From IMG/VR virus record IMGVR_UViG_2654587792_000011: DNA of 14,367 bases. One strand, given 5' to 3'. The translations under genes and the position numbers were made by a program. Origin of the DNA: a virus (Duplodnaviria > Heunggongvirae > Uroviricota > Caudoviricetes). The stretch's first letter is position 1, and every line of letters begins with the position of its first letter. The notes below the pieces were generated by a model. The model ran no database searches and was not told the DNA's origin. It worked only from the letters and a program-made list of their open reading frames with translations. Shown here in pieces: positions 524 through 13,806 of this stretch.

Positions 524-600
524 TGGCGCGTTGTACTGGATTCGAACCAGTGACCGATTGCTTAGAAGGCAATTGCTCTGTCCGGCTGAGCTAACAACGC
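524..600 (-). tRNA. argO: tRNA-Arg, anticodon UCU (reads AGA)
   Basis: The reverse complement gives a 77-nt cloverleaf: acceptor GCGTTGT/ACAACGC, D-stem GCTC/GAGC, anticodon loop CTTCTAA, T-arm with GGTTCGAAT, 3' CCA. The symbol follows the ileZ-argN-argO convention for phage tRNA trios from memory. Confidence 0.85.
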
Positions 601-613
601 ATGATGCAGATAA

Positions 614-690
614 TGGACCGCCATCGGGGACTTGAACCCCGCGCAGCCAGCTTCGAAGGCTGGCGCTCTTTCCTGATGAGCTAATAGCGG
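614..690 (-). tRNA. argN: tRNA-Arg, anticodon UCG (reads CGA)
   Basis: The reverse complement gives a 77-nt cloverleaf: acceptor CCGCTAT/ATGGCGG (one G-U pair), D-stem GCTC/GAGC, anticodon stem CCAGC/GCTGG with loop CTTCGAA, T-loop GGGGTTCAAGTCCCC, 3' CCA. Symbol by convention only. Confidence 0.75.
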
Positions 691-697
691 TATGTGA

Positions 698-773
698 TGG
701 TGGCCCTTGCTGGATTTGAACCAGCGACCTGGCGATTATGAGTCGCTCGCTCTCACCACTGAGCTAAAGGGCC
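698..773 (-). tRNA. ileZ: tRNA-Ile2-like, anticodon CAT (lysidine type, reads AUA)
   Basis: The reverse complement GGCCCTTTAGCTCAGTGGT...ACTCATAAT...GGTTCAAATCC...GGGCCACCA is a 76-nt cloverleaf closely resembling E. coli ileX-type tRNA. Confidence 0.85.
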
Positions 774-4673: not shown

Positions 4674-6070
4674 AATAAACGCTCCGTTTTACTGCCCGAC
4701 ATGCGGTTATTGCTGTATCTGCGCGGATTGCCCGGCGTCATGGGTGTGGAAAGAACCCGGGCACTCTCCTGGTCCACAGGCAGAAAATGTCCGTTATGAA
4801 AACGCCGGTAAATGGTCCCGAGCGTGCCATTACGCTGTTTCGTGATGTTGATTTCTGCTATGCCTCTGGCCTGAGTTTCCGGGTTGTATACCTCATCCCT
4901 GTAAAGCATCAGAATGATGTCGGCATCCGCCTCGATTTCCCCGGAGTTTTTCAGGTCCGAGTTCATTGGGCGTTTATTGGGTCTGGATTCCACGCCGCGG
5001 GAGAGTTGGCTCAGAGCAATCAGCGGAAAACCGCCGGATTTTGCCAGGCTTTTAAGTCCCTTTGAGATTTCCCCCACAGCAAGGTCGTGACGCCCCGTGC
5101 TGCGGGTTTTAATCAGGCCGAGGTAATCGACCACAACCAGCGCCGTTTCCGGGTGTTTCATCCGGTGGTGCTTCGTGGTTGCACATATCTCATCAATGGT
5201 CAGGTTTGCCTGGTCCACCATCCAGATATTACGCCCCGTCATTCGTCCCACGCCCTGCGAGAAACGCGCCCAGTCTTCATCTTCAAAACGGGCAACAGAC
5301 TTAAGACGGGATACCGGCATTCCACCGGCAGCAGACACCATACGTTCACCAATCTGGATGTTCGCCATCTCCATGGTGAACAGAAGCACGCCATGCCCCT
5401 GCTCAGTCACCTTGTCGATGATGTCCAGCGCAAGTTCGGTTTTCCCCATCGAAGGACGGGCGGCAATGAATACCAGGTCTCCGGGCTCCATACCGCCCGT
5501 TTTTGCGTCCAGTTCATCAATACCGGTCATCAGCGCCCTGGATTTCTCCAGTCCCTGATTGCGGCATTCAACACGGTCGACCACTTCCGGAAGGACATCA
5601 TCAATGTGAACCGGCTGAATGACGCCCTTTCCGGTCGACAGTGAGGCCATCATGTTCTGCGCATCCTTCAGGGCATCCTCGGCTGCTTCACAGGTATACG
5701 CATCACGTAAATTCTGTAATGCTTCAGTCAGTGTTTTTTCTGCATCGCGCAGTGCGGCATTGCGCCGCAACGCTGCGACATAGTGCTCCAGTGAAGACTT
5801 CACCCAGGTTTTGCGTCCGGTGTCGGTAATCACCGGGGCAAGTTCCGGCATCTCATTGCACAGCAGTACGGGGTCAATGACGCCGGATATGCGAGCCTGT
5901 CTGCAAATCCCCGCGTAAATATCCCGGTACTGACGCACAAAAAATACATCCGCCGGAAGTGTGGCCAGAATATCCATCACTTCCGGATCGGCCCCACGCA
6001 GAAAAAACGCACCGATGACAGCGCCTTCCAGGTCATCGTTACGCCATGCCGGGGTGTTCTGGCTGGTCAT
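4670..6070 (-). CDS. Replicative DNA helicase, DnaB family
   Basis: 466 aa. Walker A ARPSMGKT, Walker B-like VVVDYLGL, overall DnaB-like RecA-fold C-terminal domain. Confidence 0.9.
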   Translation of the reverse strand: MTSQNTPAWRNDDLEGAVIGAFFLRGADPEVMDILATLPADVFFVRQYRDIYAGICRQARISGVIDPVLLCNEMPELAPVITDTGRKTWVKSSLEHYVAALRRNAALRDAEKTLTEALQNLRDAYTCEAAEDALKDAQNMMASLSTGKGVIQPVHIDDVLPEVVDRVECRNQGLEKSRALMTGIDELDAKTGGMEPGDLVFIAARPSMGKTELALDIIDKVTEQGHGVLLFTMEMANIQIGERMVSAAGGMPVSRLKSVARFEDEDWARFSQGVGRMTGRNIWMVDQANLTIDEICATTKHHRMKHPETALVVVDYLGLIKTRSTGRHDLAVGEISKGLKSLAKSGGFPLIALSQLSRGVESRPNKRPMNSDLKNSGEIEADADIILMLYRDEVYNPETQARGIAEINITKQRNGTLGTIYRRFHNGHFLPVDQESARVLSTPMTPGNPRRYSNNRMSGSKTERLF

Positions 6071-6954
6071 GCGGCAACACCTCCGATACGAGAACGGTAG
6101 CTGGGCCAGTTAAACGACAACCAGTTGCGCCCGCCATCGGTGATCCTGTCGGCAATCCGGGGACTGATGAACGCCCACAATTCTTCCGGTGAAAGGTTGC
6201 TGATCAGGATAGTTGGCAAAATACCCTCATACCGGGCATTGATAATTTCCTGCAAAATGGCCATTTCAGCCGCACTGCCAAACTGAACGCCGACTTCGTC
6301 GACAATCAGCAAATCCAGTGACGCATAATGCTCAATGACGTCATCCGCTGTTTTTTCACTGTCATTCCGCCAGCAGTTTTTCACAGCCCGGGTAAGGCGC
6401 ATCACGTCGGTGATCTCCACACTGGCCAGATAGTTACGGATGATGTGTTTTGCCATTGATACCGCCAGATGATTTTTCCCGGTACCGCAACTGCCGGTCA
6501 TAACAAGACTGGTACCGTTCTCCAGCATATCTGGCCAGTTCTCCGCATAGCGGCGACAGGCCGCAAGATTTCTGGCTGCGTCAGGATTAACCTCCAGATA
6601 ATTATCAAACTCGCAGTCCCGAAAACGCAGAGCAATTCCGGCGTTATCAGTCAGTTCTTCCGCCTTGAGGGACGACAGTTCCATGGTCAAATCACTGGCC
6701 TCAGCGATCAAGCAGTCAGGGCAGCATGAAATTTTTTCTCTGTCCTCGCCATTACGATCGATCCACACCAGTATATGCGTACGATATTTACCGTGTTTTT
6801 CGCAATATCCGCGACCTTCACGCATCAGGCAGGAACGATAAGGCCATGGCTTTTCGCCCTTCTGAGCAAATGCAATCTCTGCCCGTAACTCATCCATTCG
6901 CGCCTGTAGTCTTGTTTGTTTCTCACGTTGGTCAATCGTCATCATCGCTGTCAC
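6067..6954 (-). CDS. Helicase loader, DnaC/IstB-like AAA+ ATPase
   Basis: 295 aa. Walker A GSCGTGKNHLA, Walker B LLIVDEVG. Start overlaps the helicase gene by 4 nt. Confidence 0.85.
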   Translation of the reverse strand: MTAMMTIDQREKQTRLQARMDELRAEIAFAQKGEKPWPYRSCLMREGRGYCEKHGKYRTHILVWIDRNGEDREKISCCPDCLIAEASDLTMELSSLKAEELTDNAGIALRFRDCEFDNYLEVNPDAARNLAACRRYAENWPDMLENGTSLVMTGSCGTGKNHLAVSMAKHIIRNYLASVEITDVMRLTRAVKNCWRNDSEKTADDVIEHYASLDLLIVDEVGVQFGSAAEMAILQEIINARYEGILPTILISNLSPEELWAFISPRIADRITDGGRNWLSFNWPSYRSRIGGVAA

Positions 6955-9610: not shown

Positions 9611-10317
9611 CATCGCTGCCAACCAATAACCTGAAATAACCCCATTTTCGGGTGATACCAGCGAGTCCCTCGCGGTTCTGCTTCCTCCATAACCCGATAA
9701 AAAGCAGCCATAAACGGTTCCACAGCAACAATTGCGCGACGTGACAACAATCCGTCCGGCGTCATGAACTCATGTGTGTCTGTAGGAATTTGATAGGCGT
9801 TCACCAGATTGCGGCATTTATCATCTGACAAACCGGTTTTTGCTTTCAGTTGGCGATATCCGGCATAGCCCTCACGAATAGTGCCCTTTTTAATTTGCTC
9901 GACTGTTTCAGCAACGTGGCTGACTTTTTCTTCCACCTGAGTGATCCGTTTCTGTTGGCGAACGGCTTCAAGAGCCATCGCGGCAACCATTTCGATTTCG
10001 CTCATTGGCTTACGGATCTGTTCTTCCAGTTCGCGCCAGCGATCTACCAGGCGAGCTGTGAATTCAGGACAGAGCTGTGCGACGACAATGATGCTGTCGC
10101 GCTTACCTCGTTCACCTTCGAATACATACGCGCTAGAAAATCGGCGAGGCCCAAGTGATTGTTTATTCTCAATTTCCACAGTCTGTGGAAATTGGATGAT
10201 TCCCTTTTTAGCCAGTGTTTCAATAGTTCTCTTAACACTATCTGGTCGGCTTCCCACCAGCTCTGCGATCTCAACGCTGGTCATGGATGCTTTGCCGTTA
10301 AAAATTGCGGTGTTCAT
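9610..10317 (-). CDS. Phage regulatory protein with Rha/antirepressor-like N-terminal HTH, in the cII position
   Basis: 235 aa. N-terminal MTSVEIAELVGSRPDSVKRTIETLAKKG resembles Rha/KilA-type phage regulator N-termini. Overlaps the cro-like gene by 4 nt. Not CII-like in size or sequence. Confidence 0.45.
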   Translation of the reverse strand: MNTAIFNGKASMTSVEIAELVGSRPDSVKRTIETLAKKGIIQFPQTVEIENKQSLGPRRFSSAYVFEGERGKRDSIIVVAQLCPEFTARLVDRWRELEEQIRKPMSEIEMVAAMALEAVRQQKRITQVEEKVSHVAETVEQIKKGTIREGYAGYRQLKAKTGLSDDKCRNLVNAYQIPTDTHEFMTPDGLLSRRAIVAVEPFMAAFYRVMEEAEPRGTRWYHPKMGLFQVIGWQR

Positions 10318-10604
10318 TGTTTATCTCCTGCGTGTATTCCATCCGCTCTGTGTGGTGAACTTGGATTTAGGCTTTTGCGTAACAAGTTAGGAATTCCATC
10401 TTCAGGGTGAGGATAAAGATCTGGCCTTAAGCCATGAGGCGTAACCTTCCATGCAACTACTTCACATACTCGTAAAACGAAACGAGCAGGAATTGTGCTT
10501 TTTGAAAACCACTGATTCACCGCTTGCGGCGTCACACCAAGATTTCGCGCTATGGCATTTTGCGCAATTAATGCACGAAGTTTGTCGTAATCATTTCCTT
10601 CCAT
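10314..10604 (-). CDS. Cro-like HTH regulator (Cro/YdaS type)
   Basis: 96 aa with HTH LGVTPQAVNQWFSK, divergent from the CI repressor gene across a 130-bp operator-like region. Confidence 0.6.
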   Translation of the reverse strand: MEGNDYDKLRALIAQNAIARNLGVTPQAVNQWFSKSTIPARFVLRVCEVVAWKVTPHGLRPDLYPHPEDGIPNLLRKSLNPSSPHRADGIHAGDKQ

Positions 10605-10737
10605 AACAAAGCACCAATATTAACTTTATAAATCAAGAATACATCAAGTTTAAATTAACATGCAAATTACAAAAGGATCGAATACACTAAAATCAAGTAA
10701 AGATTTATCCTTGTAAAGAAACCCACAGGATTTGGTC
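10605..10737. promoter_or_regulatory. Divergent promoter/operator region between the cro-like and cI genes (oR/pR/pRM-like)
   Basis: AT-rich. ATCAAG occurs three times (10632, 10643, 10692) and GTAAAGA twice (10697, 10713). Individual operators are not resolved. Confidence 0.5.
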
Positions 10738-11427
10738 ATGAAGAACGTCAAAAACACGGAAAATCGAATAGCCGCGATGCTGAAAGCAAAAGGATGGACT
10801 CAGGCTCAACTGGCCCGCAAGTTAGGTGTGAGTGCGCAATCAGTGCAGTACTGGACAACAGGAAAAACATTTCCACGGAGTGATAAGCTCGCGCATTTAT
10901 CAGAGATTAGCGGTTATCCACAATCCTGGTTCTTAGGTGAAGACTCCTCACCAACCTTTTCCTCGCAAGAGAAACACCAGACAAGAACAGATAGCGTCGT
11001 ATTTAATGTCCTTGATGTTGAGTTTAGTTGCGGTGATGGAACTCATGTCCGTGGTGACTTGATAGATGTAGTGCGCTCAATAGAACTTGATCCTGAATAT
11101 GCCCGACGTCTTGTTGGAAATCGGGCATTCAAAAATATAGAAATAGGTAACGCCAGAGGAGACAGTATGGCTCCCACAATCTCACCTGGCGACCTTCTTT
11201 TTCTTGATAAGACAGTAACTTATTTTGATGGCGATGGTATTTATGCATTTTGTTTTGATGGAGAATGCTACGTGAAAAGGCTTCAAAAAATTGGAAGCAA
11301 AATCATGGTGTTATCTGATAACCCCAATTATCAACCATGGAGCATCGAAAAAGAGGGGTTAGCTCTGCTTTATATCCAGTCTAAAGTGATCTCATCAGTA
11401 CCATTCAACATAAACAGATTTGGTTAG
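10738..11427 (+). CDS. cI: CI-type prophage repressor (HTH_XRE plus S24 LexA-like peptidase)
   Basis: N-terminal HTH GWTQAQLARKLGVSAQSVQYW; C-terminal peptidase motifs GDSMAPT (Ser) and YVKRL (Lys). ATG 10738 with AGGA SD is preferred over the track's TTG at 10732. Confidence 0.85.
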   Translation: MKNVKNTENRIAAMLKAKGWTQAQLARKLGVSAQSVQYWTTGKTFPRSDKLAHLSEISGYPQSWFLGEDSSPTFSSQEKHQTRTDSVVFNVLDVEFSCGDGTHVRGDLIDVVRSIELDPEYARRLVGNRAFKNIEIGNARGDSMAPTISPGDLLFLDKTVTYFDGDGIYAFCFDGECYVKRLQKIGSKIMVLSDNPNYQPWSIEKEGLALLYIQSKVISSVPFNINRFG

Positions 11428-11439
11428 TCTTTGATTTTA

Positions 11440-11461
11440 ACGGGCTTTGCCCGTTTTTTTT
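11440..11461 (+). terminator. Intrinsic terminator after cI
   Basis: Stem ACGGGC/GCCCGT with 3-nt loop (11440-11454), followed by eight T through 11461. Confidence 0.6.
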
Positions 11462-11491
11462 CTGCCTGAAATATACGATATCAATTTTTTC

Positions 11492-11543
11492 TTGACAGCC
11501 TGTTTCCCAAAACATAATATCGCACCATCAATTATAACTTGAT
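11492..11543 (+). promoter_or_regulatory. Strong sigma70 promoter with operator-like palindrome at the start site
   Basis: TTGACA (11492-11497), 17-nt spacer, TAATAT (11515-11520). Palindrome ATCAA-N7-TTGAT at 11527-11543 overlaps the predicted start. Confidence 0.55.
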
Positions 11544-11573
11544 TTGATTCAATTTAAAATTGTTGGCGGATAT

Positions 11574-12122
11574 ATGAAGACACTAAAAGCAACTCCAGAA
11601 ACAACTAATTTTATCAACTGCGGCTGTGTTACGCTTAAGGGCTTAGAACTTGATTCCTTTGCATTAAATATTGCAAATTTGCTAAGTGCTGTACGCACAT
11701 TCCATCTTCTGGATTGTGCTCGCTCAAAGGAACTGGGCATTGAGGTAATGGAATTTATCCATGAATATGCTCTATCTGCTGCTTCTCCTGCACAACAAAA
11801 ACAATCCTTCCCTGAAAGCTGGCTGGTTAACCTTCGCACCCAACGCGAAGCCTGCGGCTTAACAACCGCCGAACTCGCCAGGCTGCTCGATCTCGATGAA
11901 GAAATTATCATCCAGTGGGAGAGCGGAGAGTATGAACCAACTATCAGTATGCTTATCCCACTGGCAAATATTCTTGGCTGCGATCCGATGTGCCTGTTAA
12001 CTGGTGAGGTTACTCCTCCGGAGCAACCAAAAAGTGAGGAGCAGCAACACCATGACGCATCTCAACAAGTTTGCCCCTTATCTCGCGAAGCTCTTCTGCG
12101 GAAGAACCAATACCAATGGTGA
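11574..12122 (+). CDS. Two-domain protein: unknown N-terminal domain plus C-terminal XRE-family HTH
   Basis: Start taken at ATG 11574, because the track's TTG 11544 has no SD and lies too near the start site. HTH GLTTAELARLLDLDEEIIIQWESGE. N-terminal domain is homologous to the C-terminus of the next protein. The 3' end is uncertain because of overlapping alternative frames. Confidence 0.5.
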   Translation: MKTLKATPETTNFINCGCVTLKGLELDSFALNIANLLSAVRTFHLLDCARSKELGIEVMEFIHEYALSAASPAQQKQSFPESWLVNLRTQREACGLTTAELARLLDLDEEIIIQWESGEYEPTISMLIPLANILGCDPMCLLTGEVTPPEQPKSEEQQHHDASQQVCPLSREALLRKNQYQW

Positions 12123-12250
12123 CATAATCGCCGCTTCGCCCTTCAAGGTACATGCGAACATTTTTATCAATCATTGCGGAAACAGTCTCAATATGAAAAC
12201 ACTTCTGAGACTCGCTATATAGCAGAACATATAAGTCAGCTGAGGAAGCC

Positions 12251-12616
12251 ATGAAAAAGTTCGAAAACATAACTGTTCTCCATGTTGATGACTTTGATTA
12301 TACAAACCCGGAACTTCTCCCGGAGGTTGTAAAGGCAATGGATGTTGCCGATATAGTGATTAGAGAAAAGAGAATTGTCAAAAACAGGCTCGCATGCACT
12401 TCAGGAGCAATGACAGAAACAACCTCACAGCAAGATAATTACGAAGGCATTTGTCTGGAGCCTGATTCATTTGCGGTAAATGTTTATCATTTATTGCATG
12501 CAACACAGGTATTACATATGTCCAGTAATCACGAAACGAAAACACTCGGCAGCGAAATTCTGAGTTTTGCATGTGAGTATACAAAAGCTGCTGCCGAAAA
12601 AGAATTAGCGCAATAA
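12251..12616 (+). CDS. Hypothetical protein whose C-terminal domain is paralogous to the N-terminal domain of the 11574-12122 product
   Basis: 121 aa with good SD GAGGA (12242-12246). About 42% identity over a gapless 48-aa stretch (LEPDSFAVNVYHLL... vs LELDSFALNIANLL...). Confidence 0.55.
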   Translation: MKKFENITVLHVDDFDYTNPELLPEVVKAMDVADIVIREKRIVKNRLACTSGAMTETTSQQDNYEGICLEPDSFAVNVYHLLHATQVLHMSSNHETKTLGSEILSFACEYTKAAAEKELAQ

Positions 12617-12694
12617 CAACAAATATGCCCTGAACGTTTATTGCGGTTTTATCGCCGGGGATTGTTACAACCTTAATCCACAGGAGGCTTTATT

Positions 12695-12808
12695 GTGACT
12701 TTTATAAAGAATATGGCATCACACAAGACCGCCTGCCTTATTGCACAATACGGTGAAAATTACATGCATATTGCCTGCTTATTTCTGCGTAAAGCATACG
12801 GGAGATAA
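12695..12808 (+). CDS. Small ORF (37 aa) with strong SD, coupled to the downstream gene
   Basis: AGGAGG (12683-12688), 6-nt spacer, GTG 12695; product MTFIKNMASHKTACLIAQYGENYMHIACLFLRKAYGR; stop TAA 12806-12808 two nt before the next ATG. Too short for the ORF track. Confidence 0.3.
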   Translation: MTFIKNMASHKTACLIAQYGENYMHIACLFLRKAYGR

Positions 12809-12810
12809 TA

Positions 12811-13023
12811 ATGCATCAGAAAACAGCAGAACACGAACAAACCAGAATATTGCTGACCATCAAAAACGGGAAAGTAATATTCATTCTCCATGTTCATGAC
12901 GATGAACTTGTAGGAACTCTTTCAACATTCCTGTTTATTGCAGAAAAGGCAGGATATGACGTTATTGCACCAGCAGATGAAGATGAAGATGAAGATGAAG
13001 ATGAAGATGAAGATGAGGAATAA
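12811..13023 (+). CDS. Small protein with C-terminal (Asp-Glu)7 acidic tail
   Basis: 70 aa with SD GGGAGA (12800-12805). Hydrophobic beta-like core followed by the tail DEDEDEDEDEDEDEE. Confidence 0.55.
   Translation: MHQKTAEHEQTRILLTIKNGKVIFILHVHDDELVGTLSTFLFIAEKAGYDVIAPADEDEDEDEDEDEDEE
12976..13017 (+). repeat. In-frame hexanucleotide tandem repeat (GATGAA)6 plus GATGAG
   Basis: Seven consecutive hexamers read directly from the sequence; they encode the (DE)7 tail. Confidence 0.9.
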
Positions 13024-13028
13024 ATATC

Positions 13029-13610
13029 ATGCAATACGATGAATTCCAGGCTGAAGCAACAGCCAATGGTATACGAACTGGCAGTATGACGATTGATTAT
13101 CACGACGCCATACGTCGTCTGGATGCCGGAGAATTCGATACTCCTAATGTGCGAGGTTTACGTATCCTTCAGTGTCTGGCGCAAGCCGACGAAGCAGGAT
13201 TACTGGGTAAACTTCCGGTTGAGATGAAGGTTGCTCAGTGGCGATGGTTGTATGTGACGACATTCATCAACGAAGAAGAAGACAAGAACGGCACAATTGA
13301 TATCCTGAATGAACACGGAACAACTGAACACGCCGTGGTATATAACGGGATGTATGGGTTTATGACGATATATCCCGGCCCCATTCGATTTGCCTTACAA
13401 CAGTATATTGAATGGAATTTAATTCAAAAATACGGCGAAGCTGAAGGAATGGGAAGAGCGCTGTTTCTTTATCAGAAAATGCTCACTACTTCCCCTGATA
13501 AAGGTTTCATTCTTTCAGATATGGGTCGAGAAGGGCTTGAAATCCTTCTGGATGAAATTATTAACGAAATGAATACTCATGGCATGCAATCCGAAACAGA
13601 TATTAAGTAA
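13029..13610 (+). CDS. Hypothetical protein, no recognisable motif
   Basis: 193-aa ORF starting 5 nt after the preceding stop, with GAGGAA upstream. Confidence 0.55.
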   Translation: MQYDEFQAEATANGIRTGSMTIDYHDAIRRLDAGEFDTPNVRGLRILQCLAQADEAGLLGKLPVEMKVAQWRWLYVTTFINEEEDKNGTIDILNEHGTTEHAVVYNGMYGFMTIYPGPIRFALQQYIEWNLIQKYGEAEGMGRALFLYQKMLTTSPDKGFILSDMGREGLEILLDEIINEMNTHGMQSETDIK

Positions 13611-13620
13611 AAGGGACCAC

Positions 13621-13806
13621 ATGACCGTTATCGAGTATATCCAGGAAAATCCAGATTGCAGTAGAGAAGATATATCCCTCGCACTTGGAAGAAGCGCAAC
13701 TTCTATCAGTAATGAATTATCACGGTTATTGTGGAATGGGTTAATAGTACGAACTGGAGAAAAAAACAAAATGATTCTGTACTGCGTAAACAATCTGCCG
13801 TTTTGA
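13621..13806 (+). CDS. Small winged-helix-like protein whose stop codon is supplied by the IS terminus
   Basis: ATG 13621 with SD AAGGGA (13611-13616), 61 aa. The stop TGA 13804-13806 is the first three bases of the IS inverted repeat, so the native C-terminus may have been replaced. Confidence 0.45.
   Translation: MTVIEYIQENPDCSREDISLALGRSATSISNELSRLLWNGLIVRTGEKNKMILYCVNNLPF

Follow-up and report, generated by a model that had tools for sequence, protein, structure and literature searches.

The viral DNA considered here (IMG/VR record IMGVR_UViG_2654587792_000011; a stretch of 14,367 nucleotides (nt), hereafter the window) is a lambdoid prophage of E. coli, of the phiP27 or Stx-phage-like type. 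One of its small genes encodes a protein of 70 amino acids (aa) whose C-terminus, A(DE)7E (...AGYDVIAPADEDEDEDEDEDEDEE), is specified by a perfect hexanucleotide array, and the number of units in this array differs from prophage to prophage. The array is a coding variable-number tandem repeat (VNTR). Its polymorphism, together with slippage as the inferred mechanism, can be taken as almost certain. The wider reading, to which a probability of about 0.6 is assigned, is that of a young coding microsatellite, driven by slippage, in the tail of a conserved accessory protein of the early-left region, the tail being disordered and encoded by a gene junction. An earlier note on this DNA had placed and described the (DE)7-tailed open reading frame (ORF) correctly, apart from an overlooked extra Glu at the very end, and its prediction of in-frame 6-bp slippage polymorphism between isolates is borne out by arrays of 2 to 9 copies that are pure and have identical flanks. 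The features on which the argument turns are these:

12811 to 13023, plus strand: gene for the 70-aa acidic-tail protein (phrog_340; phiP27 L07 family), with ATG at 12811 and TAA at 13021-13023.
12811 to 12975, plus strand: conserved 55-aa core, modelled by AlphaFold2 as a beta-hairpin (residues 12-28) and a helix (residues 37-46).
12976 to 13017, plus strand: hexanucleotide microsatellite (GATGAA)6GATGAG encoding (DE)7, with 2 to 9 units between prophages; read from the sequence and followed by one GAA codon.
13015 to 13020, plus strand: putative Shine-Dalgarno sequence GAGGAA of the 193-aa gene that comes next, within the last two codons of the tail.

By Tandem Repeats Finder the array has 7.0 copies with 100% matches and is the only perfect one with more than three copies in the window. 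Among complete E. coli genomes the gene is carried by 203 of 5426 (about 4%, Stx-converting phages included). Nine units are found in one of these genomes, seven in one, six in 4, five in 12, four in 3 and three in 38; for the remaining 144 of the 203, which were sampled rather than listed in full, the sampled rows are compatible with two units. An exact-pattern scan of IMG/VR provides a second sample of 47 further contigs, with two units in 8, three in 23, four in 5, five in 5, six in 1, seven in 4 and eight in 1. Across both samples every value from 2 to 9 is seen, giving eight length alleles. Seven E. coli loci picked by alignment length have arrays of 2, 3, 4, 5, 6, 7 and 9 units with identical junctions, and the proteins annotated there by the Prokaryotic Genome Annotation Pipeline (PGAP) are 60, 62, 64, 66, 68, 70 and 74 aa long. 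All 56 of 56 arrays consist purely of GATGAA and GATGAG and are in frame, and length differences are always exact multiples of 6. The same repeat pattern gives no match (0) in species-representative genomes.

The array changes on backgrounds that do not. The complete genome that best matches the window, E. coli O55:H7 RM12579, is 99.5% identical across 13.8 kb, and between 11547 and 13803 (2.26 kb around the tail gene) the sole difference is 24 bp of array, seven units in the window against three. Flanks were compared at the 54 loci with full 965-nt flanks. The window's own flank haplotype occurs with 3, 4, 5, 6 and 7 units, and other identical-flank haplotypes carry 2/5/8, 3/5/6, 3/9, 4/5, 3/4 and 2/3 units, which amounts to at least 12 independent length changes on backgrounds with zero single-nucleotide polymorphisms (SNPs). 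The flanks themselves show 125 substitutions over 965 sites, about 0.13 per site. Array change is at least about 90 times more frequent than change of the average flanking nucleotide, a conservative bound in which only within-haplotype changes are counted. An identical 193-aa protein (WP_001199104.1) is encoded beside alleles of 3 to 9 copies. Slipped-strand mispairing is the established mechanism for length changes of whole units. Because all arrays are pure and short alleles predominate, the data point to young expansions and not to long tails that have long been kept.

The origin of the tail can be approached through its relatives. Divergent E. coli alleles (77-90% identity) all have the minimal tail DEDEE, and the (DE)n tail is missing from relatives outside this E. 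coli clade. Homologues from other genera have unrelated hydrophilic tails of 5-22 residues that are usually mildly acidic, such as NTEKQ, AKEQTL, HQEEISGTNSNTHS and ADETAQEQNA. In every relative read (the window and loci L008, L011, L013, L016, L018, L019 and L020) the Shine-Dalgarno sequence of the next gene lies within the last codons of the tail, in the forms AAGGAG, GGAGAAG, AGGAG and GAGGAA, and the type of tail shifts with the downstream gene. Since the last codons hold the ribosome-binding site of the next gene and the tail type follows that gene, the tail is best regarded as encoded by the gene junction. Translation of purine-rich ribosome-binding sites gives Glu, Lys and Gly. The junction sequence of this E. 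coli clade, GATGAAGATGAGGAA, is already a two-unit near-repeat, and such a purine-rich junction could have seeded the pure GATGAA microsatellite. Mispairing of slipped strands during replication would then add or remove whole 6-nt units, moving the tail between (DE)2E and (DE)9E and leaving the frame, the core and the downstream ribosome-binding site unaltered. The tail would be a disordered appendage and function would be carried by the 55-residue core.

The gene itself is a real, conserved gene for a small accessory protein. Its product matches phrog_340 (function unknown) with an E value of 2.3e-22 across residues 2-67 and is 49% identical to its homologue phiP27 L07. Homologues were sought exhaustively with the core as query and then with a profile, as a full-protein query is swamped by Asp/Glu words (8000 candidates, 23 matches). 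The 255 clusters found are all named 'hypothetical' and come from prophages of Escherichia, Klebsiella, Salmonella, Enterobacter, Citrobacter and Raoultella. A protein-based scan of species-representative genomes yields 7 loci, six of them in Citrobacter, Enterobacter, Trabulsiella and Pseudocitrobacter; the seventh, in a metagenome-assembled genome of Thermodesulfobacteriota, is a match both weak and partial. All 114 of 114 aligned homologues match phrog_340, and eight columns are invariant among them (H8, T16, I17, N19, G20, E32, F40 and P54). No match to the protein is found in Pfam, NCBIfam or PADLOC, and the family profile, when run against PDB sequences, gives nothing below E 0.06.

In the AlphaFold2 model built on the family alignment, the predicted local distance difference test (pLDDT) score is 92-96 over residues 11-50. 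The predicted template modelling score is 0.47 and the monomer is not compact, from which it appears that the core probably works as an oligomer; presumably it acts as an oligomer subunit and protein-binding module. Modelling of a tandem two-domain relative (P0035) without an alignment, for core packing, is uninformative (pLDDT 38). For the tail, with a pLDDT of about 55 and no secondary structure, disorder is predicted. With 7 acidic and 5 basic residues the core has an isoelectric point (pI) of 6.0, and all 15 further carboxylates lie in the tail, bringing the whole protein to 22 acidic and 5 basic residues and a pI of 4.16. As many as 109 of the 114 family members match the C-terminal part of phrog_4792, an ORF6N-type anti-repressor family with an ORF6N-like N-terminal part (best E 4e-6), and 67 of 114 match the C-terminal part of phrog_2379 (best E 1e-4). 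By these profile matches the core resembles the module at the C-terminus of ORF6N-type 'anti-repressor' proteins and looks like a relative of it that stands alone. When all ORFs of the fetched loci are searched by profile, no copy of the core appears inside local Rha/Ant proteins.

The position of the gene in the prophage, and the genes around it, are described by the following features:

10314 to 10604, minus strand: Cro/YdaS-like gene, divergent from the CI repressor gene (Pfam library scan).
10732 to 11427, plus strand: CI-type repressor, with a helix-turn-helix (HTH) domain and Peptidase_S24 (Pfam Peptidase_S24 E 4e-17, HTH_3).
11439 to 11455, plus strand: putative terminator, a hairpin and T run just 3' of the repressor gene (sequence scan).
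11492 to 11520, plus strand: putative pL-like promoter TTGACA-17 nt-TAATAT (consensus scan, 10/12 positions).
11480 to 11496 and 11527 to 11543: putative operators, palindromes either side of the pL-like promoter (sequence scan).
12682 to 12687, plus strand: strong Shine-Dalgarno sequence AGGAGG of the 37-aa ORF, read from the sequence.
12695 to 12808, plus strand: conserved 37-aa ORF (VTFIKNMASHKTACLIAQYGENYMHIACLFLRKAYGR), with a GTG start here and ATG in relatives, ending 2 nt before the ATG of the tail gene.
12800 to 12805, plus strand: putative Shine-Dalgarno sequence GGGAGA of the tail gene, within the last codons of the 37-aa ORF.
13029 to 13610, plus strand: 193-aa acidic protein (phrog_1515, phiP27 L06 family; phrog_1515 E 3e-90; pI 4.6).

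The orientation of the map is fixed by the CI-type repressor gene at 10732 to 11427, so that the plus strand is the 'leftward' arm. The minus strand carries the Cro/YdaS-like gene, Rha/Ash regulators, replication genes and three tRNA genes. Half-sites related to the palindromes that flank the promoter recur in the cI-cro intergenic region. After the promoter the plus strand carries, in order, a 192-aa HTH protein, a 121-aa protein, the 37-aa ORF, the tail gene and the 193-aa gene, and in relatives the latter is followed by ea22-type genes, xis and int. The tail gene is presumably part of a repressor-controlled early-left operon headed by the pL-like promoter, judging from matches at the level of consensus sequences. 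Its position in the left arm, 3' of and co-oriented with a CI-type repressor gene, is the same in the window, in E. coli, Klebsiella, Salmonella and Enterobacter loci and in phages phiP27 and PhiR49_2.

In phiP27-like phages of E. coli the order 121-aa gene, 37-aa ORF, tail gene and 193-aa gene is kept. The 37-aa ORF differs from its phiP27 counterpart by 13 synonymous and 11 non-synonymous codon changes, with a ratio of non-synonymous to synonymous rates (dN/dS) of 0.06; it is annotated only in phage PhiR49_2 and is unannotated in RefSeq genomes of E. coli. It probably encodes a genuine small protein whose translation is coupled to that of the tail gene. The homologue of the tail gene in Klebsiella, Enterobacter and Salmonella overlaps a basic 115-121-aa gene upstream and abuts a basic 138-146-aa gene downstream (frameshifted in one Salmonella prophage). 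That the 37-aa ORF might be a remnant of the 115-121-aa upstream gene of these genera was considered and rejected, there being no similarity. Neither the 193-aa nor the 121-aa protein has a match in Pfam, NCBIfam or PADLOC or in PDB sequence searches. The earlier note had also suggested that the tail gene is co-expressed with the next gene. This is plausible for the window, where the 193-aa gene starts at 13029, 5 nt past the stop of the tail gene, with its Shine-Dalgarno sequence in the tail, and where the pair is one kept in phiP27-like phages. It does not extend to the whole family, as the 193-aa homologue lies further downstream in Klebsiella loci, with one or two genes intervening, and is absent from the Salmonella and Enterobacter loci read.

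Other observations concern the wider prophage. The 192-aa HTH protein (11544-12122, plus strand; residues 33-82) and the 121-aa protein (12251-12616, plus strand; residues 57-121) match the same PHROGs (phrog_4587, 5451 and 4836) and therefore have a module of about 50 aa in common. PGAP annotation of the 121-aa ORF covers only its last 68 codons, and an 86-aa ORF on the minus strand (12010-12270, phrog_6104) lies between the 192-aa and 121-aa genes. Three prophage tRNA genes at 524-773 (minus strand) are those for Arg-TCT, Arg-TCG and a tRNA with a CAT anticodon that is called Met by ARAGORN and Ile by PGAP. Most of the 31 substitutions relative to RM12579 are clustered in and around these tRNA genes (SNPs at 360-805). 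In the DnaC-like helicase-loader gene (6067-6954, minus strand) 21 bp present in RM12579 (TCTGCCCGTAACTCATCCATT) are missing from the window at about 6878, an in-frame indel. A winged-helix (MarR-like) ORF at 13621-13806 (plus strand) takes its stop codon from the left end of the insertion sequence IS911 (TGAAGTGGCACACTG...), which begins at 13804; this ORF is 82 aa in relatives L006, L002 and L007, where it is without PGAP annotation, and is shortened to 61 aa in the window. Strain 15A has an IS903B element at about the same place as IS911 in the window.

On the preferred reading, the length variation of the tail is probably tolerated and nearly neutral rather than tuned. Several points weigh against this. 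Near-neutrality is itself inferred, and the tails of the family are mostly net-negative even when their sequences are unrelated, so that a degree of acidity could be under selection. Several unrelated strains retain long alleles, with five copies in 12 genomes and seven copies in four further loci of one haplotype. No solved or predicted viral structure matches the core and no fold can be assigned to it; a role for the tail is thus possible. Early-lytic expression of the gene, finally, is a timing taken from consensus promoter and operator matches only.

The opposite position is that the tail is a functional polyanion, a flexible mimic or decoy of DNA or RNA acting on a host or defence protein (a restriction enzyme, a nucleoid protein or a nuclease), with its length under diversifying selection in an arms race. 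This is possible and, on the evidence, doubtful. The acidity of the full protein, the usually net-negative tails of the wider family and the coexistence of eight length alleles are in its favor, as is the location of the gene. The early-left arm is the lambdoid home of genes for anti-defence and host takeover, such as ral and gam of lambda and abc of P22. The earlier note had likewise invoked DNA mimicry, anti-restriction and tails of the SSB type, and no test supports these: there is no match in Pfam, NCBIfam or PADLOC and no fold match, the core is near-neutral, the charge sits in a predicted disordered tail, and relatives outside this E. coli clade do without (DE)n. Membership of the Ocr, ArdA or KlcA/ArdB families is not found by Pfam or NCBIfam, the PHROG matches being limited to the family of unknown function and to anti-repressor C-termini. 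The folded surface of arrayed carboxylates that characterizes DNA mimics is likewise not seen in the AlphaFold2 model, where the carboxylates of the tail fall in the low-scoring part. A more elaborate version is unlikely. In it, slippage would let the phage vary, within a lineage, the length of a tunable polyanionic decoy, a flexible imitation of nucleic acid that would, soon after induction, block a DNA- or RNA-binding host protein of defence or of the nucleoid. Were it true, a temperate coliphage would have a locus of the contingency type through which the strength or reach of an anti-defence protein changes, with no gene being switched on or off.

It is distinctly unlikely that the protein is an antitoxin-like neutralizer, or a chaperone, of a neighbor's product, with the variable tail as the contact part. 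This idea draws on a toxin-like gene found beside some homologues:

L016, 3685 to 3906, and L008, 5185 to 5403 (Enterobacter and Klebsiella prophages): ParE_like ORF of 72-73 aa (PF24732, 69 bits, pI 11.8).

The ParE_like ORF has its start in the homologue's final 29 nt, and a 14-aa tail (...SNTHS or ...DTNS) is confined to homologues arranged in this way. The tight packing of the homologue between two basic proteins outside E. coli, and the change of tail type together with the downstream gene, can be read in the same sense. However, the homologue is commonly present without a ParE-like gene, and what follows the tail gene in the window encodes an acidic protein with no match among toxin families. 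DNA-binding or dimerization domains of antitoxins (RHH, AbrB/MazE, Phd/YefM or HTH) are not detected, and fold matches to MazE and VapB are non-significant (E about 5). The link between tail and neighbor is explained equally well by a recombination junction with the ribosome-binding site of the next gene encoding the tail.

A third possibility is that the repeat acts on translation, either by tuning the downstream ribosome-binding site or through destabilization of the ribosome by the Asp/Glu run, so that copy number sets the expression of both genes. The placement of the downstream Shine-Dalgarno sequence inside the tail, with a gap of 5 nt, is suggestive, and runs of Asp/Glu can abort translation in E. 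coli through intrinsic ribosome destabilization (10.1101/2021.02.02.429294). According to the same study, this destabilization is counteracted when about 30 or more residues ahead of the run occupy the exit tunnel (10.1101/2021.02.02.429294); here the run is preceded by 55. Predicted mRNA structure and accessibility of the ribosome-binding site stay constant from 2 to 10 copies (minimum free energy -29.9 kcal/mol throughout), and an action of copy number on this site via RNA structure was rejected on these grounds. An effect on translation is accordingly very improbable. Least probable is an artefact, in which the ORF is untranslated or the copy-number differences are assembly errors: the product is called 'hypothetical protein' by PGAP everywhere, a 69-aa poly-Ser ORF on the minus strand (12894-13103) is the mirror image of the repeat and one allele is frameshifted, but the core is conserved across genera with invariant residues and strong profile matches, and every length difference is an exact multiple of 6. 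Assembly error is unlikely because sequencing reads are longer than the 42-bp array and because many complete genomes, as well as independent IMG/VR contigs, have these alleles in common.

Few hypermutable simple-sequence repeats are known from E. coli and its phages. The junction-encoded microsatellite offers a clean case, with eight length alleles and repeated origin on identical backgrounds inside a conserved, uncharacterized early gene. Limited literature searches returned no paper on the locus, the repeat or phiP27 L07. The array can be used as a fast typing marker for these prophages, and its alleles form a natural series, with tails of 5 to 19 residues, with which the importance of a disordered acidic tail for an accessory protein of a phage can be examined. 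The locus also suggests a simple origin for acidic tails, in which the ribosome-binding site of the following gene, being purine-rich, is translated as Asp and Glu codons that slippage then amplifies. If tail length proves functional, it would be an unusual phage means of tuning an early protein.

The protein can be compared with several known systems. Like T7 Ocr and ArdA, it is small, strongly net-negative and encoded in the early region of a mobile element. Yet it has no sequence, profile or fold similarity to them, and its charge resides in a disordered tail instead of a rigid surface shaped like DNA. E. coli SSB, T7 gp2.5, T4 gp32 and HMGB1 also have a folded domain followed by a C-terminal tail that is acidic and disordered, whereas no OB-fold or HMG core is present here, either by Pfam or in the model, which consists of a beta-hairpin and one helix. 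The acidic tails of SSB and gp2.5 end in a hydrophobic or aromatic tip, the part that docks on partner proteins; that of the window ends ...DEDEDEE and lacks one. Type II antitoxins such as MazE are small and have a flexible acidic C-terminus, and some relatives of the tail gene overlap a downstream gene with a ParE-like toxin domain, but the gene downstream in the window has no match to a toxin family, and the tail protein has no antitoxin domain match and no significant fold match. The similarity to the ORF6N-type anti-repressor proteins (phrog_4792 and phrog_2379) is weak and consistent over the core, the window protein differing as a stand-alone domain without the ORF6N N-terminal part.

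The repeat itself is closest to the coding VNTRs of enterobacteria used in multiple-locus VNTR analysis typing, which are perfect short tandem repeats within ORFs that differ by whole units between close strains, a variation attributed to slipped-strand mispairing. It differs from these in lying in an early gene of a prophage and in encoding a pure Asp-Glu tail. With the phase-variable contingency loci of Haemophilus, Neisseria and Campylobacter it has in common a hypermutable simple-sequence repeat that gives heritable, reversible variants within a lineage. In contrast to those loci, it has a unit of 6 nt and keeps the frame in all 56 alleles; it lies 5' of the Shine-Dalgarno sequence of the next gene, whose predicted accessibility does not change with copy number, and what varies is the length of the protein rather than an on/off state.
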